Assembly: GCA_951406725.2 (NCBI GenBank)
Contig: OX597826.1
Location: 14,942,001 to 15,006,000 of the forward strand
Source of the DNA: Octopus vulgaris
Lineage: Eukaryota
Direction: 5' to 3'
Length of the DNA stretch: 64,000 nt
Made by a program: the position numbers and the translations under genes. The notes beneath the pieces are model-generated. The model did not search any database and was not told the DNA's origin. It worked only from the letters and a program-made list of their open reading frames with translations. This document shows, one piece after another, positions 9,407-44,436 of this stretch (the first letter of the stretch is position 1; every line of letters starts with the position of its first letter).

Positions 9407-9682
9407 CAATTCTTTTTTATTGGCCACAAGGGCTGACACGCATGATTACATAAAGGGACAAGACAGGACGAAAGGTTACAAAGGGTTTTGTCCGTTTGTT
9501 AAAAAAATCCGTGTAAAAAACTTTATAACAATGATTATTAAAACAATGAAAAACTCCCAAAAGGGGGAGACGTTTCGAAAGGTTCCTGGTGGAAAAAACT
9601 CTACAAAAGCTAACGGGAGCCTGGTCTAAAAAGGGGGTGTAGAGAGTCCCCTTTTTTTCTCCTTTGTATTACCTTTTTGAAA

Positions 9683-12600
9683 TCACAGGCGAAACCTGAG
9701 AACTGGTCCATTTATACAGGCCAGTCTCGCACAATTCACCCACCTTTCATAAAACTTGCTACCGGACAGCACTTTCCTCTCTAACCTCATCTTCCTTTTC
9801 AAGTGAAACTTGAAAATGTTGATGAGGCCTTGACCAAAGAGGAAAGTGTCTGTCTTTAGCCCTTTCAAACGAGTCCACCACACCACCTCTTTCGCCACAG
9901 CCACTAGGCACAAGAAAACGGCCTCGCCCTCCTTGTTAAAGGAGGTCGGCGGGGCAATCTTCACTATGGATTCGGCCGATAGTCGGATCCGTCCTACACG
10001 TGACAGTAGCTGTTCGACATAAACCCATATTTCAGCAATACTCGGGCACTGGACGAGTGCGTGCAGGACGGTTTCGTCGTCCTGGCAACACCTCGGGCAG
10101 GCCCGGCTGACGGCACTTCCGTGCCGGTAGAGTTTATCTCGAACAGGCAGAGCCCCTCGGTAGCACTGCCAGGCGAGAGACCTCTGGAAATTATCCATCG
10201 GCCCCGGCCCGAAAGTCCTCCCGAACAGACCGCTCAGTTCGTCGTCTTCAACGCCTAGAGTTTCCCCGAGAACGTCGTCGCATTTTTCCTCCACTAACCC
10301 TCTATAGAACGCTAGAGTGGAGCTGTAACCGACCGCATTGCCCGCCTGGCGGAGGGCGGAGAGGGCTTGACGGCACTCGAGGTGCCAAGCGCCCTTTCTC
10401 GGTCTACGTTTGATCCAGGTCTGCAGCTCCGTCAAAGAGACGAGCTGCGGAAAATCGCGTCTGACAAAAGACGACCACACCTGTTCACCGTCTAGGAAGC
10501 GCTTGAGATGCCGCAGCCTGAGCGCATGTCTGCGCAACAGCAACCACGGCATTCCAAGGCCTCCGTTCAGCGGTCGTTGACAGCAGATGGATCGCCTGAC
10601 CAGTGGCACCTGACCCTTCCACAAAAAGTCGAAGAGCAGGCGTACCAGCTTGGCCAACCAGCGGTCGGGACAAGGGACGACGGTCAAGCGGTAATAGATG
10701 ACGGATGCGATGTACGCATTCGCCACCTCCGCTCGACCTTTCAGGGACAGCTTCCTCTCGGCCCATTTCTGGGTGAGACGTGCCACCCTGCTCGTCACCT
10801 CTTCCCAGTTCTTATCCACCTGGAGGTCCGGACCGAACCAGACCCCGAGCAGTTTAACGGGTCCGTCTGTCCAGCGCCCTACGACGCTGTTGGACGGCAT
10901 GGGCTTGCCTCTCCAGGTGCCCAGTTGCAAGCCCACAGACTTTTCCGCGTTAATATTTGCCCCTGTCACCGCTTCGTACTGGTTTAGCGTCTCGCCAATC
11001 AGGCCAATGTGCCTGTGGCTCGACACCACCACGGTGACGTCGTCGGCATAAGCAGACACGCTGTTTCCGCCTCCTAGATCGCGCGGGATACCCCTCAAAG
11101 CCTCCAACTTGCGCAGTAATGGCTCGAGAGTCAAAATGTACAAGAGGGAGGAGAGAGGGCATCCTTGGCGGACCGAACGCGAGATGTCGAACGGTTCCGA
11201 AAGGTGACCGTTCACCCGTATCACCGAGCAGATGTTGCTGTATAAAGCAGCGATCCACCCGCGGAAGACTGGACCGAAGCCGGCTGCCTTGAGGACAGCT
11301 GCCAGGTACCGATGGTCGACTCTATCGAAGGCTTTACTCTGATCCAAGTTGATCAAAGCCCCACCCGCGCCAGCGTCGTTACCCACCCTCTCTATGATGT
11401 AGCGCATGACATGGAGGTTGTCGTGTATCGACCTGGTCGGCACGGCGCATGTCTGCGTCTTGCCGACCAGCTTGTCCACGACAAGCGCCAATCTCTTGGC
11501 TAGCACCTTGGCCAAAATCTTCAACTCTGCATTGAGCAGAGTGATGGGCCGGAAATTCCCTATAACGTCCCCCTTGTTTGGGTCCTTCTTTAGCAAAGCC
11601 ACCACCCCTCGACAGACAAAAGCAGGAATTCTCCCGTTTTGCTGCCAGTTGCAGTAGACGTTTGCCAACAGGTCCGCAAACAAGTCTGGCATTGAAAAGT
11701 AAAGCTCGTAGGGCAGACCATCCAAACCCGGCGATCTACCTCTCGTGCAACTCTTCATCGCTTCCTGTACTTCCCAGGCAGATATCGGTCCTTCGCAGCA
11801 CTCTGCCTCGCTGTCCGAGAGTTGCGGCAGTCCGTCCAGGTACACACCGAAGTCTGTACCGTTGGTGTCCGTTCCACCGCTCGTCCCAAACAGCTGAGCA
11901 AAGTGCCGCTGAAGCACCGTACACATCTGCTTCGGTTGGGTAACCTCGCGCCCGTTCTGGTCCACCAAAGACCGAATGGTTGCTCTGTTGCCTCGCTTCG
12001 CCTCCGCCACGCGGGCCCATCGAGCGGCTCTAGTCCCCTCCCCGCTTAGCGAACGTGCCTTAGCTCTGACAACGCAGCCTTCGTGTTTGGCGTCGAAGTG
12101 TTGGTCGAGGGCCAACCTTGCCGCCAACACGTCGGTCGCGATGCCAGTGTCAAGAGCCTCGTCTAGTTTCTTAACTAAATCCCGCTCTCTCTTCCTACGT
12201 TCAATAGCTAGAGTCTTACTATACCTAATCGACTCTACTCTAATTGCTCTCTTGAGGGCAAACCACCAGTTGTTGTTGATGATTGCCCCCGTGAGCGCCC
12301 GCTTAACTAGTAAACTAATCCGGTCTCTGTAAGCTTTGCACGCCGTTAACGACGCGTTCAGCTTCCAGTAGCCGGGTCCCTGTCTATGTAGCCTATCTAA
12401 GTCGACCGTACAGATCACTAATTTGTGGTCCGTATATTCGACTAGGTGGAATTGTGGACACCCTACGCTGTCCTTATCCGCTGGCCTACAAAACACTCTA
12501 TCTAAGTACGATCTAGACGACCCGATGCGGTTTGTCCAAGTCCACATTGGCACATTCGGGTTGTCTAGTCGAAACCTGTCGGACAGCTGAAAGCGGCCGA

Positions 12601-13117
12601 GTAGGTTGGCGAGGCTCTTGCACCCTCCCCCTCTCCTATCAGACGCTCCCCTGCCCACCCGATCGAAACGTTCGTCTAAGACAGCGTTCCAATCCCCAAC
12701 TAGTACTAGAGTGCGTGACGTTCCCAGGAAAACTTCCAGACGTTTGAAATAATCCGACTGCCCTGCTCCTGTCGGAGCGTAGGCAGCCAGCAGTCTGAAA
12801 GCACCGCCGTCACTACCGTCGACGTCGAGGACCACCAACTTACCTTCCGGATCCAAGAAGACTGTCCTTATTTTCAGGTCCAGGCCCTTCCGAAACAACA
12901 CCGCAGTACCACCACCGCCTGCTCCCGGCCGACACGGAGATAGAAATATCTCGTATCCGCCGAAAAGGGCTGCGAGTTCCTGCGGGTCGGAGAGCCTGGT
13001 TTCACTGATGGCTGCTACATCCACATCATGAAACCTCAGGTCGTTTAACAGGTGACCCTGTTTCCAAGGTGACCCGAGGCCTCTCACATTCAAGCAACCG
13101 ATTCTAAGATTTGCCAT
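9683..13117 (-). CDS. LINE ORF2 (APE endonuclease + reverse transcriptase + C-terminal zinc finger), intact, 1144 aa
   Basis: APE motifs LNVRGL, ISET, GDWN, SYLDR, TDH; RT motifs SPGLDG, DQSKAFDRV, SVRQGCPLS, YADD; C-terminal CPRC..ETVLHALVQC. Confidence 0.95.
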   Translation of the reverse strand: MANLRIGCLNVRGLGSPWKQGHLLNDLRFHDVDVAAISETRLSDPQELAALFGGYEIFLSPCRPGAGGGGTAVLFRKGLDLKIRTVFLDPEGKLVVLDVDGSDGGAFRLLAAYAPTGAGQSDYFKRLEVFLGTSRTLVLVGDWNAVLDERFDRVGRGASDRRGGGCKSLANLLGRFQLSDRFRLDNPNVPMWTWTNRIGSSRSYLDRVFCRPADKDSVGCPQFHLVEYTDHKLVICTVDLDRLHRQGPGYWKLNASLTACKAYRDRISLLVKRALTGAIINNNWWFALKRAIRVESIRYSKTLAIERRKRERDLVKKLDEALDTGIATDVLAARLALDQHFDAKHEGCVVRAKARSLSGEGTRAARWARVAEAKRGNRATIRSLVDQNGREVTQPKQMCTVLQRHFAQLFGTSGGTDTNGTDFGVYLDGLPQLSDSEAECCEGPISAWEVQEAMKSCTRGRSPGLDGLPYELYFSMPDLFADLLANVYCNWQQNGRIPAFVCRGVVALLKKDPNKGDVIGNFRPITLLNAELKILAKVLAKRLALVVDKLVGKTQTCAVPTRSIHDNLHVMRYIIERVGNDAGAGGALINLDQSKAFDRVDHRYLAAVLKAAGFGPVFRGWIAALYSNICSVIRVNGHLSEPFDISRSVRQGCPLSSLLYILTLEPLLRKLEALRGIPRDLGGGNSVSAYADDVTVVVSSHRHIGLIGETLNQYEAVTGANINAEKSVGLQLGTWRGKPMPSNSVVGRWTDGPVKLLGVWFGPDLQVDKNWEEVTSRVARLTQKWAERKLSLKGRAEVANAYIASVIYYRLTVVPCPDRWLAKLVRLLFDFLWKGQVPLVRRSICCQRPLNGGLGMPWLLLRRHALRLRHLKRFLDGEQVWSSFVRRDFPQLVSLTELQTWIKRRPRKGAWHLECRQALSALRQAGNAVGYSSTLAFYRGLVEEKCDDVLGETLGVEDDELSGLFGRTFGPGPMDNFQRSLAWQCYRGALPVRDKLYRHGSAVSRACPRCCQDDETVLHALVQCPSIAEIWVYVEQLLSRVGRIRLSAESIVKIAPPTSFNKEGEAVFLCLVAVAKEVVWWTRLKGLKTDTFLFGQGLINIFKFHLKRKMRLERKVLSGSKFYERWVNCARLACINGPVLRFRL

Positions 13118-13157
13118 GTTTCAAAAGTTAGGGGGAAAAAAAGGAGAAAAAAAGGCT

Positions 13158-13980
13158 CTACTTACTGTTGTTGGTGGTGGGGGTGGCTCCCTTGTGCTTT
13201 TGCACGGGTGCTTCAATAATATTTTTGTAAAGTTTCTGAGAGAAACTTTTCCCTAACGATCCCACATCGTTAGGGAATATTTGTTTTATTTCGTTGTAAA
13301 CTGTTTTGTTTATTTTTATTGTGAGAATGTGTGCTGGTGGTGTGTTGTGTGTAGGTATTATGAAATCTGTAATGTTTGTGCTTGTTTTGTTTTTCAAATA
13401 CTCAACCAGTTCCTGGTTTCTTGTATTCACTGCTGTAATCGTGTCTGTAATTGTGTCTGTGTTTGTTTGTGTCTGTGGTAGTGGCAGTAGTGGTGTCGAA
13501 AGTGTTGTTGTTGTTGTTTGCTGTTGTGAGTGTGTGTTGTTGTTAATGTTGTTGTTGTTGTTGGGAAGTACTATTTGTTCGTGCTTCCCCTGTAAATCTT
13601 TTTGTTTTTTCCTCCTTTTCTTTTTTGGAGGCACTATGTTCCATTCTCCTTTGTTGGAATCAGAGCTCGCACAATCCGAGATCTCTTCATCCGGCAAAGG
13701 AATGGTTGAGGGGTCTGCTTCAGTAGCAGGACGAAAAGTTTTTGGTTCCGCCGGTATCGGTGGTGCCGCTGCTCCTGTTACTGTTGATGTCGCTGCTGTC
13801 GACCTTCGAGGTACTGGTGTCGGTGTTGGTTTGGTGGTGGTTGTCGGTGTTGGTTTGGTGGTGGTTGTTGTTGTTGGAGGTGGTGTTGTTCGTCTTGGTG
13901 CTGGTGTTGGTGATGGTGTTGGTGGTGTGGCAGCCTTTGGTGTTTCTTGCTGTTTTTGTTGTTTCTGTTGTTGTTGCTTG

Positions 13981-14014
<34 letters not shown>

Positions 14015-15047
14015 GCTGCTGCCTCTTGCTATACTCCTCCATTCTCTTTTTTTGAATGGGGCAGTCCCTTTTCAGGTGGCTTTCGCTACTGCAGAGGAAA
14101 CATTTTGGCTTTCGCCCCTCTACAATAACATTTAGCCTGGTCCCATCCAGCAAGATGACAAAGTCAGGTATGGCATTGATGTTTTCCTGCTGGATCTGTA
14201 CCAGCAGTTGAATACCCATGCCTGACCAGTTCTTTTCTCGTACCCTCCGAACATTCAGAATAGTGGCAGTGTCCTCTATGCCATAGAGGACAGCCGCCAC
14301 TAGCCATGAGATTTTCTGTTCGGGGGGTATTGTGCTTATAGTTATTTTTTGTACCTTACGCCCGAGGTACGTCGGGACGAGGAACAAATGTTCATTTTGC
14401 AAGGGCGAAATGGCGTTCGCCCTTGCAAGCTCCTCTGTTGGGAAGCGAACCTCCACGGTTCCAAATCGCTTCCCTCTTGTCACATAGCTCTTCTGGCCCC
14501 CAAATGGGCTTCAGAGCCATCTCCAACTGTTGTGGTGTGGCGTTAAACAATCTTTTAGTTTTCTTTTCGAAGACTTTATAAAAGATTGTTCTTTTGTTTG
14601 TCTCTTGTGTGAGTTGTTGAGGTGTGTTGAGGAAAACACTGTTCCCCTCCTTTCTCAACAAATCTTGTGCCATTTTTATGTCCTCCATTGTAATTTCTAC
14701 ATCTTCCGAAATTTGCTTCGCAGCAGAAGCAAAATCGTTAGAAGCTTTTACAGTTTTTTGTTGGTTCTTGTCTGTGTTTGTGTCTGTTATAAGTTTCTTT
14801 ACCTCCCCTTCGGTACAGCATCACTTGTTGAAGGCAGAGGGGGGAAATCAAGAGTGACGTCGAACGCGACGTCCTGGCTTGCATTCTCCTTTTGAACCGA
14901 GCGCGTGCTCTCCGGTTCGGAAGGAGGATCTTTGTTGCCTTTTACGGCTTGAAATGGGTTGTACGTAACCCGTGACGTTGCCTTTTGTTCTTGTGGAGGG
15001 GGTGTTGCAAGAAGGAGGGAAGAGCCAGCAGCTCGTTTCAAAGCCAT
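13158..15047 (-). CDS. LINE ORF1 (zinc knuckle, polyQ, Pro/Thr-rich), split by two single-base homopolymer indels in this assembly
   Basis: Pieces 14799-15146, 14392-14688 and 13158-14483 join into one frame by comparison with copy B; CFLCSSESHLKRDC knuckle; likely start MALKRAAG. Confidence 0.85.
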
Positions 15048-15567
15048 TTTGTAATTATGTGTGTGCAAAAATGTCAATTTCAAAATAAAAAACAGCAATT
15101 TCACCCCGAAGGGGCAAAATTTTCGCCCAACCGACGAGCTCCGCAAGAAGCCGGTCCTTTTGGCTACAAAATATTAAAAAATATTCAAGCTTATCAAAAA
15201 ATTTCCAATAAAATTGGCACAAAACTCACAGAGCTGATTCACGTACGTCCATCGGCGTCGGAAGGAATAATATAATAATAATAATAATCAATTTTTTTTT
15301 ATTGGCCACAAGGGCTGACACGCATGATTACATAAAGGGACAAGACAGGACGAAAGGTTACAAAGGGTTTTGTCCGTTTGTTAAAAAATCCGTGTAAAAA
15401 ACTTTAAAACAATGATTATTAAAACAATGAAAAACTCCCAAAAGGGGGAGACGTTTCGAAAGGTTCCTGGTGAAAAAACCCTACAAAAGCCAACGGGAGC
15501 CTGGTCAAAAAAAGGGGGTGTAGAGAGTCCCCTTTCTTCTCCTTTTACATTACCTTTTTCTTTGAAA

Positions 15568-18500
15568 TCACAGGCGAAACCTGAGAACTGGTCCATTTAT
15601 ACAGGCCAGTCTCGCACAATTCACCCACCTTTCATAAAACTTGCTATCGGACAGCACTTTCCTTTCTAACCTCATCTTCCTTTTCAAGTGAAACTTGAAA
15701 AAGTTGATGAGGCCTTGACCAAAGAGGAAAGTGTCTGACTTTAGCCCTTTCAAACGAGTCCACCACACAACTTCTTTCGCCACAGCCACAAGGCACAAGA
15801 AAACGGCCTCGCCCTCCTTGTTAAAGGAGGTCGGCGGGGCAATCTTCACTATGGATTCGGCCGATAGTCGGATCCGTCCTACACGTGACAGTAGCTGTTC
15901 GACATAAACCCATATTTCAGCAATACTCGGGCACTGAACGAGTGCGTGCAGAACGGTTTCATCGTCCTGGCAACACCTCGGGCAGGCCCGGCTGACGGCA
16001 CTTCCGTGCCGGTAGAGTTTATCTCGAACAGGCAGAGCCCCTCGGTAGCACTGCCAAGCGAGAGACCTCTGGAAATTATCCATCGGCCCCGGCCCGAAAG
16101 TCCTCCCGAACAGACCGCACAGTTCGTCGTCTTCAACGCCTAGAGTTTCCCCGAGATCGTCGTCGCATTTTTCCTCCACTAACCCTCTATAGAACGCTAG
16201 AGTGGAGCTGTAACCGACCGCATTGCCCGCCTGGTGGAGGGCGGAGAGGGCTTGACGGCACTCGAGGTGCCAAGCGCCCTTTCTCGGTCTACGTTTGATC
16301 CAGGTCTGCAGCTCCGTCAAAGAGACGAGCTGCGGAAAATCGCGTCTGACAAAAGACGACCACACCTGTTCACCGTCTAGGAAGCGCTTGAGATGCCGCA
16401 GCCTGAGCACATGTCTGCGCAACAGCAACCACGGCATTCCAAGGCCTCCGTTCAGCGGTCGTTGACAGCAGATGGATCGCCTGACCAGTGGCACCTGACC
16501 CTTCCACAAAAAGTCGAAGAGCAGGCGTACCAGCTTGGCCAACCAGCGGTCGGGACAAGGGACGACGGTCAAGCGGTAATAGATGACGGATGCGATGTAC
16601 GCATTCGCCACCTCCGCTCGACCTTTCAGGGACAGCTTCCTCTCGGCCCATTTCTGGGTGAGACGTGCCACCCTGCTCGTCACCTCTTCCCAGTTCTTAT
16701 CCACCTGGAGGTCCGGACCGAACCAGACCCCGAGCAGTTTAACGGGTCCGTCTGTCCAGCGCCCTACGACGCTGTTGGACGGCATGGGCTTGCCTCTCCA
16801 GGTGCCCAGTTGCAAGCCCACAGACTTTTCCGCGTTAATCTTTGCCCCTGTCACCGCTTCGTACTGGTTTAGCGTCTCGCCAATCAGGCCAATGTGCCTG
16901 TGGCTCGACACCACCACGGTGACGTCGTCGGCATAAGCAGACACGCTGTTTCCGCCTCCTAGATCGCGCGGGATGCCCCTCAAAGCCTCCAACTTGCGCA
17001 GTAATGGCTCGAGAGTCAAAATGTACAAGAGGGAGGAGAGAGGGCATCCTTGGCGGACCGAACGCGAGATGTCGAACGGTTCCGAAAGGTGACCGTTCAT
17101 CCGTATCACCGAGCAGATGTTGCTGTATAAAGCAGCGATCCACCCGCGGAAGACTGGACCGAAGCCGGCTGCCTTGAGGACAGCTGCCAGGTACCGATGG
17201 TCGACCCTATCGAAGGCTTTACTCTGATCCAAGTTGATCAAAGCCCCACCCGCGCCAGCGTCGTTACCCACCCTCTCTATGATGTAGCGCATGAGATGGA
17301 GGTTGTCGTGTATCGACCTGGTCGGCACGGCGCATGTCTGCGTCCCGCCGACCAGCTTGTCCACGACAAGCGCCAATCTCTTGGCTAGCACCTTGGCCAA
17401 AATCTTCAACTCTGCATTGAGCAGAGTGATGGGCCGGAAATTCCCTATAACGTCCCCCTTGTTTGGGTCCTTCTTTAGCAAAGCCACCACCCCTCGACAG
17501 ACAAAAGCAGGAATTCTCCCGTTTTGCTGCCAGTTGCAGTAAACGTTTGCCAACAGGTCCGCAAACAAGTCTGGCATTGAAAAGTAAAGCTCGTAGGGCA
17601 GACCATCCAAACCCGGCGATCTACCTCTCGTGCAACTCTTCATCGCTTCCTGTACTTCCCAGGCAGATATCGGTCCTTCGCAGCACTCCGCCTCGCTGTC
17701 CGAGAGTTGCGGCAGTCCGTCCAGGTACACACCGAAGTCTGTACCGTTGGTGTCCGTTCCACCGCTCGTCCCAAACAGTTGAGCAAAGTGCCGCTGAAGC
17801 ACCGTACACATCTGCTTCGGTTGGGTAACCTCGCGCCCGTTCTGGTCCACCAAAGACCGAATGGTTGCTTTGTTGCCTCGCTTCGCCTCCGCCACGCGGG
17901 CCCATCGAGCGGCTCTAGTCCCCTCCCCGCTTAGCGAACGTGCCTTAGCTCTGACAACGCAGCCTTCGTGTTTGGCGTCGAAGTGTTGGTCGAGGGCCAA
18001 CCTTGCCGCCAACACGTCGGTCGCGATGCCAGTGTCAAGAGCCTCGTCTAGTTTCTTAACTAAATCCCGCTCTCTCTTCCTACGTTCAATAGCTAGAGTC
18101 TTACTATACCTAATCGACTCTACTCTAATTGCTCTCTTGAGGGCAAACCACCAGTTGTTGTTGATGATTGCCCCCGTGAGCGCCCGCTTAACTAGTAAAC
18201 TAATCCGGTCTCTGTAAGCTTTGCACGCCGTTAACGACGCGTTCAGCTTCCAGTAGCCGGGTCCCTGTCTATGTAGCCTATCTAAGTCGACCGTACAGAT
18301 CACTAATTTGTGGTCCGTATATTCGACTAGGTGGAATTGTGGACACCCTACGCTGTCCTTATCCGCTGGCCTACAAAACACTCTATCTAAGTACGATCTA
18401 GACGACCCGATGCGGTTTGTCCAAGTCCACATTGGCACATTCGGGTTGTCTAGTCGAAACCTGTCGGACAGCTGAAAGCGGCCGAGTAGGTTGGCGAGGC

Positions 18501-19001
18501 TCTTGCACCCTCCCCTCTCCTATCAGACGCTCCCCTGCCCACCCGATCGAAACGTTCGTCTAAGACAGCGTTCCAATCCCCAACTAGTACTAGAGTGCGT
18601 GACGTTCCCAGGAAAACTTCCAGACGTTTGAAATAATCCGACTGCCCTGCTCCTGTCGGAGCGTAGGCAGCCAGCAGTCTGAAAGCACCGCCGTCACTAC
18701 CGTCGACGTCGAGGACCACCAACTTACCTTCCGGATCCAAGAAGACTGTCCTTATTTTCAGGTCCAGGCCCTTCCGAAACAACACCGCAGTACCACCACC
18801 GCCCGCTCCCGGCCGACACGGAGATAGAAATATCTCGTATCCGCCGAAAAGGGCTGCGAGTTCCTGCGGGTCGGAGAGCCTGGTTTCACTGATGGCTGCT
18901 ACATCCACATCATGAAACCTCAGGTCGTTTAACAGGTGACCCTGTTTCCAAGGTGACCCGAGGCCTCTCACATTCAAGCAACCGATTCTAAGATTTGCCA
19001 T
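15568..19001 (-). CDS. LINE ORF2, copy B, one single-base frameshift near 18512
   Basis: ORFs 18450-19001 and 15568-18438 together match copy A ORF2; plus strand CCCTCCCCTCTCC versus CCCTCCCCCTCTCC in A. Confidence 0.9.
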
Positions 19002-19042
19002 ATTTCAAAAGTTAGGGGGAAAAAAAAAGGAGAAAAAAGGCT

Positions 19043-19850
19043 CTACTTACTGTTGTTGGTGGTGGGGGTGGCTCCCTTGTGCTTTTGCACGGGTGCTTCC
19101 ACAATGTTTTTGTAAAGTTTCTTCGAGAAACTTTTCCCTAGCGATCCCACATCGTTAGGGAATATTTGTTTGATTTCATCATATGTTTTTGCATTTATTT
19201 TTATTGTGAGAATGTGTGCTGGTTGTGTGTTTTGTGTTGGTATGATGAAATCGGTTATATTTGTACTAGTTTTGTTTTTTAAGTACTCCACTAGTTTTTG
19301 GTTCTTTGTGTTTATTGATGTAATTGTGTCTGTGTGTGTTTGTGTGTGTGGCAGTGGCAGTAGTGGTGTCGAAAGTGTTGTTGTTGTTGTTTGTTGTTGT
19401 GAGTGTGTGTTGTTGTTGTTGTTGTTGTTGATGTTGGGAAGCACTATTTGTTCGTGCTTCCCCTGTAAATCTTTTTGTTTCTTCCTCCTTTTCTTCTTTG
19501 GAGGCACTATACTCCATTCTCCTTTGTTGGAATCAGAGCTCGCACAATCCGACTCTTCATCCGGCAAAGGAATGGTTGAGGGGTCTGCTTCAGTAGCAGG
19601 ACGAAAAGTTTCTGGTTCCACCGGTATCGGTGGTGCCGCTGCTCCTGTTACTGTTGATGTCGCTGCTGTCGACCTTCGAGGTACTGGTGTCGGTGTTGGT
19701 TTGGTGGTGGTTGTCGGTGTTGGTTTGGTGGTGGTTGTTGTTGTTGGAGGTGGTGTTGTTCGTCTTGGTGCTGGTGTTGGTGATTGTGTTGGTGGTGTGG
19801 CAGTCTTTGGTTTTTCTTGCTGTTTTTGTTGTTTCTGTTGTTGTTGCTTG

Positions 19851-19884
<34 letters not shown>

Positions 19885-20919
19885 GCTGCTGCCTCTTGCT
19901 ATACTCCTCCATTCTCTTTTTTTGAATGGGGCAGTCCCTTTTTAGGTGGCTTTCGCTACTGCAGAGGAAACATTTTGGCTTTCGCCCTCTACAATAACAT
20001 TTAGCCTGGTCCCATCCAGCAAGATGACAAAGTCAGGTATGGCATTGATGTTTTCCTGCTGGATCTGTACCAGCAGTTGAATACCCATGCCTGACCAGTT
20101 CTTTTCTCGTACCCTCCGAACATTCAGAATAGTGGCAGTGTTCTCTATGCCATAGAGGACAGCCGCCACTAGCCATGAGATTTTCTGTTCGGGGGGTATT
20201 GTGCTTATAGTTATTTTTTGTACCTTACGCCCGAGGTACGTCGGGACGAGGAACAAATGTTCATTTTGCAAGGGCGAAATGGCGTTCGCCCTTGCAAGCT
20301 CCTCTGTTGGGAAGCGAACCTCCACGGTTCCAAATCGCTTCCCTCTTGTCACATAGCTCTTCTGGCCCCAAATGGGCTTCAGAGCCATCTCCAACTGTTG
20401 TGGTGTGGCGTTAAACAATCTTTTAGTTTTCTTTTCGAAGACTTTATAAAAGATTGTTCTTTTGCTTGTCTCTTGTGTGAGTTGTTGAGGTGTGTTGAGG
20501 AAAACACTGTTCCCCTCCTTTCTCAACAAATCTTGTGCCATTTTTATGTCCTCCATTGTAATTTCTACATCTTCCGAAATTTGCTTCGCAGCAGAAGCAA
20601 AATCGTTAGAAGCTTTTACAGTTTTTTGTTGGTTCTTGTCTGTGTTTGTGTCTGTTATAATTTTCTTTACCTCCCCCTTCGGTACAGCATCACTTGTTGA
20701 AGGCAGAGGGGGGAAATCAAGAGTGACGTCGAACGCGACGTCCTGGCATGCATTCTCCTTTTGAACCGAGCGCGTGCTCTCCGGTTCGGAAGGAGGAGCT
20801 TTGTTGCCTTTTACGGCCTGAAATGGGTTGTACGTAACCCGTGACGTTATTTTTTTTTGTTCTTGTAGGGGGGGTGTTGCAAGAAGGAGGGAAGAGCCAG
20901 CAGCTCGTTTTAGTGCCAT
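19043..20919 (-). CDS. LINE ORF1, copy B, one single-base frameshift near 19986
   Basis: ORFs 19942-21018 and 19043-19912; plus strand TTCGCCCTCT versus TTCGCCCCTCT in A. Confidence 0.85.
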
Positions 20920-21153
20920 TTTGTAATGTGTGTGTGCAAAAAATGTCAATTTCAAAAGGATAAACAGTAATTTCACCCCGAATGGGGCAAAATTTCGCCC
21001 AACCGACGAGCTCCGCAAGAAGCCGGTCGGTTTGGCTACAAAAATATTTAAAAATATTCAAACTTATCAAATGATTTCCAATGAAATTGGTGTCAAATTC
21101 ACGGAGCTGATTCACGTACGTCCATCGGCGTCGGAAGGAATAATAATAATAAT

Positions 21154-22078
21154 CAATTCTTTTTATTGGCCACAAGGGCTGACACGCATGATTACATAAA
21201 GGGACAAGACAGGACGAAAGGTTACAAAGGGTTTTGCCGTTTTTTTAAAAACATCGAGTAAAAATCTTTATAACAACTTATAAAATTCAACAATGAAAAA
21301 CTCCCAAAAGGGGGAGACGTCTCGAAATGACCCGGTGGAAAAAACCCTACAAAAGCCAACGGGAGCCTGGTCAAAAAGGGGTGTAGAGAGTCCCCTTTCT
21401 TCTCCTTTTACATTACCTTTTTCTTTGAAATCACAGGCGAAACCTGAGAACTGGTCCATTTATACAGGCCAGTCTCGCACAATTCACCCACCTTTCATAA
21501 AACTTGCTATCGGACAGCACTTTCCTCTCTAACCTCATCTTCCTTTTCAGGTGAAACTTGAAAAAGTTGATGAGGCCTTGACCAAAGAGGAAAGTGTCTG
21601 TCTTTAGCCCTTTCAAACGAGTCCACCACACGACCTCTTTCGCCACAGCCACTAGGCACAAGAAAACGGCCTCGCCCTCCTTGTTAAAGGAGGTCGGCGG
21701 GGCAATCTTCACTATGGATTCGGCCGATAGTCGGATCCGTCCTACACGTGACAGTAGCTGTTCGACATAAACCCATATTTCAGCAATACTCGGGCACTGA
21801 ACGAGTGCGTGCAGAACGGTTTCATCGTCCTGGCAACACCTCGGGCAGGCCCGGCTGACGGCACTTCCGTGCCGGTAGAGTTTATCTCGAACAGGCAGAG
21901 CCTCTCGGTAGCACTGCCAAGCGAGAGACCTCTGGAAATTATCCATCGGCCCCGGCCCGAAAGTCCTCCTTTTTGGCTACAAAAATATTAAAAAATATTC
22001 AAACTTATCAAATGAATTCCAATGAAATTGGTGTCAAATTCACGGAGCTGATTCACGTACGTCCATCGGCGTCGGAAG

Positions 22079-22079
<1 letters not shown>
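21154..22079 (-). mobile_element. Internally deleted copy C of the same LINE (both termini retained)
   Basis: About 110 bp of the 5' end joined near 21968 to the last ~815 bp (ORF2 C-terminus 21431-21946 plus 3'UTR); (AAT)n on both sides. Confidence 0.9.

Positions 22080-22110
<31 letters not shown>

Positions 22111-43901: not shown

Positions 43902-44436
<535 letters not shown>

Follow-up and report, generated by a model that had tools for sequence, protein, structure and literature searches.

Engineered fold-back of a transcript suppresses nonsense-mediated decay (Eberle et al. 2008, PMC2689704), and long-distance pairing in the tombusvirids CIRV and TNV-D serves as a switch between translation and replication (PMC5382211). 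The Ty1/copia element EVD produces a gag-only subgenomic RNA through alternative splicing, with U1 protection (PMC5580714), and vertebrate L1 spacers that were folded alone revealed no shared structure (PMC5381506). Kibi/Koshi-type elements are microsatellite-targeting non-LTR retrotransposons of the L1/Tx1 clade (PMC4494074), and 13 recently active L1-Tx1 families have been reported in Octopus vulgaris (PMC13282606). These systems are compared with the present locus as far as excerpts of the cited papers describe them.

In this study, a window of 64,000 nt from O. vulgaris (the whole stretch of DNA analysed; contig OX597826.1, positions 14,942,001 to 15,006,000) was investigated. The inverted match around the ORF2 of a LINE, which the initial annotation had pointed out, is confirmed and is larger than first noted. 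The ORF2 start and stop regions likely pair in the RNA as a clasp of 20–60 bp, thereby looping out ORF2. The Eberle reporters (PMC2689704) likewise have intramolecular pairing just past a stop codon that draws the 3′ end near and could shield a long 3′UTR; here, however, the pairing is natural, predicted, 20–60 bp in size and extends across a second ORF with its AUG, and the poly(A) signal lies 230–460 nt off, whereas the reporters pair directly beside it. Tombusvirid readthrough elements also pair a post-stop site with the 3′UTR over about 3 kb (PMC5382211). SART1 and mammalian L1 share a bicistronic LINE RNA in which ORF2 translation may depend on structure (PMC5972666, PMC10275272), but SART1 has an overlapping stop-start with a local downstream structure, whereas here the spacer measures 24–66 nt, with the partner at a distance of 3.4 kb. 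EVD resembles the present elements in having a donor where the structural ORF ends, conserved across families; it is, however, an LTR element whose intron is short and in which termination is premature, whereas the candidate intron here would be the whole of ORF2, removal of which was unseen in contigs (PMC5580714). Additional to the initial annotation are the conserved GTRAGT motif on the ORF1 stop, the helix extension into the coding ends and the fold-back geometry. Neither an ORF2-spanning duplex nor a Tx1 ORF1-stop donor is described in the papers searched, subscription journals, Repbase reports and supplements being outside the scope.

Sequences and comparison set

All features are given in window coordinates and lie on the minus strand. 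The comparison set consisted of six L1/Tx1-type families from one genome (W, F, G, H, J and K; 56–83% ORF2 identity), W being the family of window copies A, B and C; the six are related to each other and hence are not independent samples. Sequencing evidence was drawn from contigs only, of runs not on record as RNA, in which strand, level and absence are unreadable.

LINE copies in the window

Copy A (9407..15265) is a full-length L1/Tx1-type LINE of about 5.86 kb. Its target is an (ATT)n/(AAT)n microsatellite, and it is the first of three head-to-tail copies. ORF1 (13158..15047), with a CCHC knuckle and a Q/T/P-rich linker, is frameshifted in this copy and ends in TAG at 13158-13160. A pyrimidine-rich spacer of 40 nt (80% C+T; 13118..13157) separates it from ORF2 (9683..13117), which is open for 1144 aa and carries an APE endonuclease, a reverse transcriptase (RT) and the C-terminal zinc-binding domain zf-RVT (PF03372, PF00078 and PF13966); its best solved relative is human L1 ORF2p (E 8e-51). 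The AATAAA poly(A) signal (9417..9422) is followed by the (ATT)n tail. Copy B (15274..21139) is 97% identical, is frameshifted in both ORFs and keeps both arms of the duplex described below (5′ arm about 18991-19046, 3′ arm about 15520-15582). In copy C (21139..22080), an internal deletion fused about 110 nt of the 5′ end to the last about 830 nt, and only the 3′ arm is left.

The features of L1-group non-LTR elements were found, namely a separate upstream ORF1, no LTRs, an AATAAA with simple-repeat tail and mostly 5′-truncated copies; the first look gave 8288 candidates for the 3′ kb versus 644 for the spacer. In an RT tree that held no named Tx1 reference, the six families formed one clade with unnamed proteins, and the Tx1 label is partly our assumption. 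Microsatellite insertion, a Kibi/Koshi-type trait, was observed in W, at (ATT)n, and in F, G and H, at (ATCT)n; K and J insertions lie outside microsatellites. Two ORFs, an APE-RT-zf ORF2 of ~1145 aa, microsatellite insertion and tandem copies are common to these elements, Kibi/Koshi and the O. vulgaris L1-Tx1 families, from which the (ATT)n and (ATCT)n targets set the present ones apart; the excerpts of both papers contain no mention of a long-range ORF2 duplex or an ORF1-stop donor (PMC4494074, PMC13282606). A sister clade at 40% identity is represented by P0002-P0006. Protein searches with P0001, P0002, P0003, P0004 and P0005 returned no further family, and a first metagenome scan and a viral scan gave no matches.

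Predicted pairing of the ORF2 start and stop regions

Three complementary blocks in a fixed order had been described for copy A, and they are present. An 8-nt block (13119-13126) pairs with 9675-9682 and an exact 16-nt block (13140-13155) with 9650-9665, and the block at the ORF1 stop, previously put at 5 nt, extends over 6 nt (13156-13161 with 9639-9644). The blocks are only approximately flush with the start and stop codons: the AUG and UGA sit inside the predicted helix, at an offset that differs by family. The predicted helix runs about 11 bp further, into both ORF2 coding ends (13107-13118 with 9684-9697). The predicted 5′ arm (13107..13161) comprises the end of the ORF1 stop region, the spacer, the AUG and the first three ORF2 codons; the predicted 3′ arm (9639..9697) comprises the last four ORF2 codons, the UGA and the first 44 nt of the 3′UTR. 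A possible outer extension into the ORF1 end (13185..13204 with 9602-9621) is inconsistent across the other families.

The arms are a pyrimidine tract and a purine tract. Exact inverted matches of at least 16 nt occurred in 0/3000 dinucleotide shuffles of both stretches (maximum 14), and the copy A binding energy of −25.6 kcal/mol (versus −7.8 ± 3.4) was reached by 0/200 shuffles. The perfect 16-mer is limited to copy A, and most other copies have one T fewer and an A-to-G change that would leave a G-U pair. Such changes had been ascribed to copies B and C, but these two also carry a 4-nt insertion, and copy C is without the spacer. Homopolymer lengths do not co-vary within W, and an A-to-I editing signature was not found in W copies (A-to-G in 3/24 A columns versus 7/134).

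Each of the six families carries its own version of the start/stop complementarity, the cognate pairing being the best in 6/6 rows and ranking 1 of 720 permutations. The observed energy was reached by 0/200 shuffles in 8/10 subfamily representatives; the exceptions were K2 (3/200) and F (10/200, with a window that clipped its distal block), and each half of F tested singly gave 0/200. The distal block was no better than shuffles in K2 (41/200) and J (69/200) and weak in K (12/200), and with the same windows the AUG-proximal half alone failed the shuffle test in K and K2. The best partner along the element was the ORF2 stop region in 8/9, J being the exception, and in fixed register 53/64 cells were paired versus 15–27 after sliding. 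Two double-sided changes, both altering ORF2 C-terminal residues, separate G1 from G2 (95% aa); G3 is a G1/G2 recombinant, with mismatches tolerated in the AUG helix. The stop is shifted by 9 nt between K and J, with the helix retained. Across families the AUG lies opposite positions −8..−10 (F, G, H), −3..−5 (J), 0..−3 (W) and +4..+6 (K) relative to the stop, thus within 10 nt of it in all six, and spacer length ranges from 24 to 66 nt. The AUG was paired in 9/9 cofolds and in 6/6 folds of ~3.85-kb fragments, and AUG-stop pairing appeared in 0/5 distant controls; for start/stop complementarity, 0/13 distant LINEs beat shuffles. The long-range duplex proposed to close ORF2 into a loop is thus well supported by cross-family covariation and the out-group control. 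Two of the outcomes that the initial annotation named as refuting it, a lack of complementarity in related families and energies that do not surpass shuffles, did not occur.

Full-length MFE folds contained the duplex in 3/5 and lacked it in copy A and H. In copy A, an ORF1 purine tract in basic-patch codons (13605..13622) competes for the spacer and is favoured over the duplex by 2.1 kcal/mol. The sense strand was more stable than the antisense in 6/10 representatives.

Donor- and acceptor-like signals

A GTAAGT 5′ splice-donor-like motif (13160..13165) overlaps the ORF1 stop of copy A. The motif was found at this stop in 52/62 copies examined and in five of the six families (GTRAGT, at most 6 nt from the stop, in two registers relative to it); H is without GTRAGT. 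Each element has 2–5 GTRAGT sites in total, and among distant LINEs an ORF1-stop GTRAGT was present in 1/13. The whole motif lies under the predicted helix in F and G, and part of it does in W.

In a 3′UTR block (9575..9630), a TGAC resembling a branch point is accompanied by a run of pyrimidines and TAG|G, with the AG at 9601-9602; copy A differs here from the W family at 9627 and 9600. The block stands 83–116 nt past the ORF2 stop in W (18/22 copies), F, G and H, i.e. in 4/6 families, and is absent from K and J (0/11 copies). In F, G and H it folds as a covarying hairpin with a 22-nt loop that holds the acceptor-like AG, and this hairpin could instead be an RT-recognition signal.

In run X9, one RNA-like contig exits the element exactly at 13166, before the GT, into foreign sequence without a match in the window or 150 loci, and this site also terminates unitigs in X9 and X15. 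Among the 11 loose ends listed, one falls at the predicted donor site, which is modest evidence. No ORF2-skipping joint was found in contigs of four runs compared over the whole element, and none of the loose ends shown in contigs of four other runs leads into the 3′UTR. The exact spliced junction had 0 matches in the genome for one acceptor variant and one homopolymer length, and no ORF2-less copy was found in 524 kb of fetched DNA.

Discussion

The clasp is quite possibly, with a chance that we put a little below even, a natural fold-back that would shorten the effective 3′UTR of ORF1, thereby allowing escape from decay, and would sequester the ORF2 AUG. The looped transcript would act mainly as an ORF1 message. 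Folding back would reduce the distance between the ORF1 stop and the poly(A) signal, about 3.7 kb, to about 230–460 nt (231–461 nt folded back versus 3648–3904 nt linear), a situation likened to the engineered constructs that escape nonsense-mediated decay. A ribosome ending ORF1 would melt no more than the initial ~15 nt of the spacer, and the inner helix over the AUG would persist and make ORF2 re-initiation rare; with 15 nt past the ORF1 stop removed, a helix of −11 to −27 kcal/mol was left in 10/10. The rare ribosome that crosses ORF2 would unwind the helix over the AUG from its opposite side on nearing the stop, and ORF2p would be released beside the 3′UTR. The initial annotation had offered gating, ribosome recycling and cis-preference; since every family has a paired AUG, repression or gating of the ORF2 AUG would fit better than a role in aiding re-initiation, and no specific support for cis-preference was found.

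SART1-type stop-start coupling was ruled out by spacers of 24–66 nt with no overlap, and readthrough by the 40-nt spacer in W, which puts ORF2 out of frame with ORF1. TURBS termination-reinitiation was rejected since its motif 1 (UGGGA) is upstream of the stop only in G1. Judging from sequence, a short-intron ORF1-ORF2 fusion would not keep the reading frame in W or F and was likewise rejected.

The clasp model leaves the conserved donor motif unexplained. As the main rival reading, ORF2 might be a retained intron, in which case the duplex would serve splicing as a bridge or mask and so govern how much spliced ORF1-only RNA arises relative to full-length RNA, or would place U1 so as to protect the full-length RNA. 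We consider this rather unlikely. The GTRAGT by the ORF1 stop in 5/6 families versus 1/13 distant LINEs, the acceptor-like block in W, F, G and H, the helix over the donor, the X9 contig exit with the unitig ends in X9 and X15, and the precedents of EVD (PMC5580714) and RNA bridges (PMC8052449) argue for it, but K and J are without the acceptor block and H is without GTRAGT, the acceptor-like AG sits in a hairpin loop that may serve RT recognition, and a single loose end marks the site. Neither a genomic junction (for the acceptor variant searched) nor an ORF2-less copy turned up, and the contigs of the eight runs, which cannot show absence, held no ORF2-skipping joint.

Small amounts of ORF2p normally suffice for a LINE, which counts against the improbable reading that the clasp aids ORF2 translation or RNP assembly, by recycling ribosomes to the AUG or keeping ORF2p on its own RNA. 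The AUG is at most 10 nt from the stop in every family, and modelling of a ribosome on the ORF2 stop leaves the distal block bound at −6 to −22 kcal/mol; the AUG, however, is buried inside the helix, J and H retain no more than a weak tether (−6 to −10 kcal/mol), and ORF2p release adjoins the 3′UTR with or without the duplex. Plant viruses use long-distance pairings of 3–4 kb for recoding control (PMC5382211), and a review mentions looping among the untested possibilities for L1 (PMC5972666), both of which are consistent with such aid. It is very improbable that the arms lack an RNA function, being low-complexity or DNA-level inverted repeats whose likeness is maintained through template switching or conversion. 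Their pyrimidine/purine composition, the equally good competition by the ORF1 purine tract in copy A, the unclear sense-strand bias, and the lack of covariation and of A-to-G excess within W would agree with this, but the pairings form a family-specific diagonal, the double-sided coding changes alter amino acids, the helix survives the 9-nt stop shift between K and J, and the arms are bulged and interrupted, unlike a copied repeat.

The fold-back reading bears on two long-open questions, namely how one LINE RNA yields much ORF1p and little ORF2p, and how a LINE RNA whose stop codon lies 3.7 kb from the tail persists. The predicted RNA structure here would constrain a reverse transcriptase in its terminal amino acids, and the conserved donor-like motif could feed host transcripts. 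Natural compensatory pairs (G1/G2, K/J) in a compact covarying structure make clean reporter tests possible. It is conceivable, though doubtful, that LINEs repeatedly evolved an ORF2-looping clasp that combines decay escape, scarce ORF2p and an ORF2 removable by splicing at the donor. The same loop-out in an unrelated CR1-like pair (L121, L123) would, if true, make this a general, unrecognised answer to LINE ORF2 expression.

Element and its copies

Three LINE copies were located head-to-tail on the minus strand, embedded in an (ATT)n microsatellite, in a 2.8-Gb genome that is rich in microsatellites. Copy A (9407–15265) carries a frameshifted ORF1 and an ORF2, open across 1144 aa, that encodes APE, RT and zf-RVT domains and has human L1 ORF2p as its closest solved relative. 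Copy B is 97% identical, and copy C is a remnant with an internal deletion, in which some 110 nt from the 5′ end is fused to the last 830 nt through 3-nt microhomology (21969–21971); this shortened form is possibly non-autonomous. A separate inverted repeat of 232 nt, 96% complementary and with 8 nt between its arms, was observed at 43907–44378. The putative Tx1 label is based on architecture and microsatellite targeting (PMC4494074) rather than on phylogenetic placement among named references.

Predicted pairing between the ends of ORF2

The three complementary blocks that the initial annotation had reported between the ORF1-stop/spacer/ORF2-AUG region (5′ arm) and the ORF2-stop/3′UTR region (3′ arm), about 3.4 kb apart, were found where it had placed them. 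The duplex of copy A also withstood comparison with shuffled sequences: its binding energy was better than that of 200/200 shuffles, and its 16-nt match was longer than in 3000/3000. In cofolding, the helix runs on into both coding ends of ORF2, with the AUG facing the UGA region. Among 22 copies of family W, to which copy A belongs, the exact 16-mer is present in copy A only; the others show homopolymer-length differences and one A/G change giving G-U, and no covariation was detected among these variants. No editing excess was found.

A distant protein query and follow-up fetches yielded 60 stretches, each of which carries ORF2; they fall into six families (W, F, G, H, K and J; 56–83% identity in ORF2). 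Eight to ten subfamily representatives were used, the number varying by test; L050, L053 and L055 (stop shifted by frameshift) and L052 (5′-truncated at the spacer) were excluded. The expected complementarity in related families was recovered, each of the six having its own arms. The cognate partner was best in 6/6 rows of the start-by-stop matrix, and cognate pairing ranked first of 720 permutations, a result that held when other representatives were substituted. With 200 shuffles per representative, the observed energy was never reached in eight of ten; it was reached by 3/200 in subfamily K2 and by 10/200 in F, where the window cut off the distal block (towards the ORF1 stop and 3′UTR) and each half gave 0/200. 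Taken by itself, the distal block gave a weak signal in K and did not reach significance in K2 or J. When the start region was scanned along its own element, the ORF2 stop was the best site in 8/9, J being the exception.

In F, G and H the register is the same: the AUG lies opposite stop −8 to −10, and 53/64 cells pair versus 15–27 after sliding by 1–4 nt; cross-family counts are fairly high (10–14/16), and the register is therefore partly plain conservation. Subfamilies G1 and G2 are set apart by two double-sided changes plus three that are single or gains, which replace S-I-V-L at the ORF2 end by T-M-I-L, and between K and J the helix is kept in place though the stop has shifted by 9 nt. The duplex is very probably real and selected.

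Several features were observed alongside. Subfamily G3 (L051, L059) is a recombinant of a G1 start region and a G2 end region, retaining the distal block with mismatches within the AUG helix. K and J (L031, L039, L032) have a common local hairpin just 5′ of the ORF1 stop, about 35–80 nt upstream of the ORF2 AUG, whose letters differ between the families. Identical sequence flanks J at both ends (L032), and instead of a microsatellite its insertion target appears to be a longer tandem repeat.

Control elements and folding

Eighty metagenome loci gave 26 with a long ORF, of which 13 also had a start and flank that were credible; none of these 13 distant LINEs had a start/stop duplex that beat shuffles (z −0.8 to +1.6). 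In folds of fragments of about 3.85 kb, the duplex was kept in 6/6 families, and AUG–stop pairing was seen in 0/5 controls, one of which formed 16 other pairs in the region. Full-length folds retained the duplex in 3/5; in that of copy A, ORF1 purine codons at 13605–13622 take the place of the 3′ arm as the partner of the spacer, and the fold constrained to contain the duplex is 2.1 kcal/mol less stable.

L121 and L123, a presumed CR1-like pair, are unrelated to the six families: the two share 72% identity, and their identity with copy A ORF2 is 24%. In both metagenome contigs, a leader pairing of about 38 bp is predicted with coding sequence 100–165 nt before the stop (L121:1485–1544 with L121:4653–4717; L123:1533–1592 with L123:4701–4765). 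Each gave 0/200 shuffles at a site chosen as the best of a scan, and the letters have changed between the two. An ORF loop-out may have arisen independently in this second LINE clade.

Splice-like signals

The donor-like motif GTRAGT overlaps the ORF1 stop in 52/62 copies, in two registers, with 2–5 GTRAGT sites per element; it is absent there from all eight H copies, one J copy and one truncated copy. It occurs at this position in 1/13 distant LINEs, namely L080, where GTGAGT overlaps the ORF1 stop and the duplex is absent. A TGAC, pyrimidine, TAG|G block lies 3′ of the 3′ arm in W, F, G and H (0/11 copies of K/J); it also folds as a hairpin, with double-sided change in 3/11 pairs. At 9575–9630 and in homologues (L034, L036, L040, L041), the 3′UTR hairpin has a covarying stem and, in F, G and H, a fixed 22-nt U-rich loop with GTAGG; it could be an RT-recognition signal or an acceptor display.

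Contigs of four runs, only guessed to be RNA, contained no joint spanning ORF2. In four further runs, likewise guessed, one contig (run X9) exits the element exactly before the GT, at 13166, and the donor is therefore probably usable. The foreign sequence that follows was not found in the window or in 150 loci, and is possibly a host exon in a chimeric transcript. ORF2 skipping was not seen in contigs of the eight runs, whose RNA nature is a guess.

Discussion

Known LINE cases (PMC5972666, PMC10275272) differ in relying on local structure or scanning, and vertebrate spacers folded alone showed no common structure (PMC5381506). Among natural systems, the closest analogue is the pairing over 3 kb that tombusvirids use for readthrough (PMC5382211). 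A literature search that excluded supplements and subscription journals found no description of the duplex.

Four readings were weighed. That the pairing has no RNA function is ranked last and considered improbable. Speaking for it, the sense strand was more stable than the antisense in only 6/10 representatives, which is no proof of RNA-level structure. A role in ribosome recycling or RNP assembly is ranked third, as unlikely but less so. Control of splicing, ranked second, is a minor though appreciable possibility, with a precedent in EVD (PMC5580714) and the donor at the ORF1 stop on its side, and the absence of ORF2 skipping in the guessed RNA runs on the other.

The favoured reading, held tentatively, is a fold-back that would protect the RNA and keep ORF2 initiation rare, and it is not mutually exclusive with splicing control. 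It is favoured because of modelled helix geometry, residual energy and precedents. In all families the helix starts at the ORF1 stop or shortly after, the AUG is predicted to be buried, and the effective distance from helix end to AATAAA is 230–460 nt versus 3.6–3.9 kb. If a terminating ribosome is assumed to open 15 nt, −11 to −27 kcal/mol is left. Engineered 26-nt fold-backs suppress nonsense-mediated decay (PMC2689704), and pyrimidine-rich sequence close to stops can also protect via PTBP1 (PMC4764554); the spacers are 62–83% pyrimidine.
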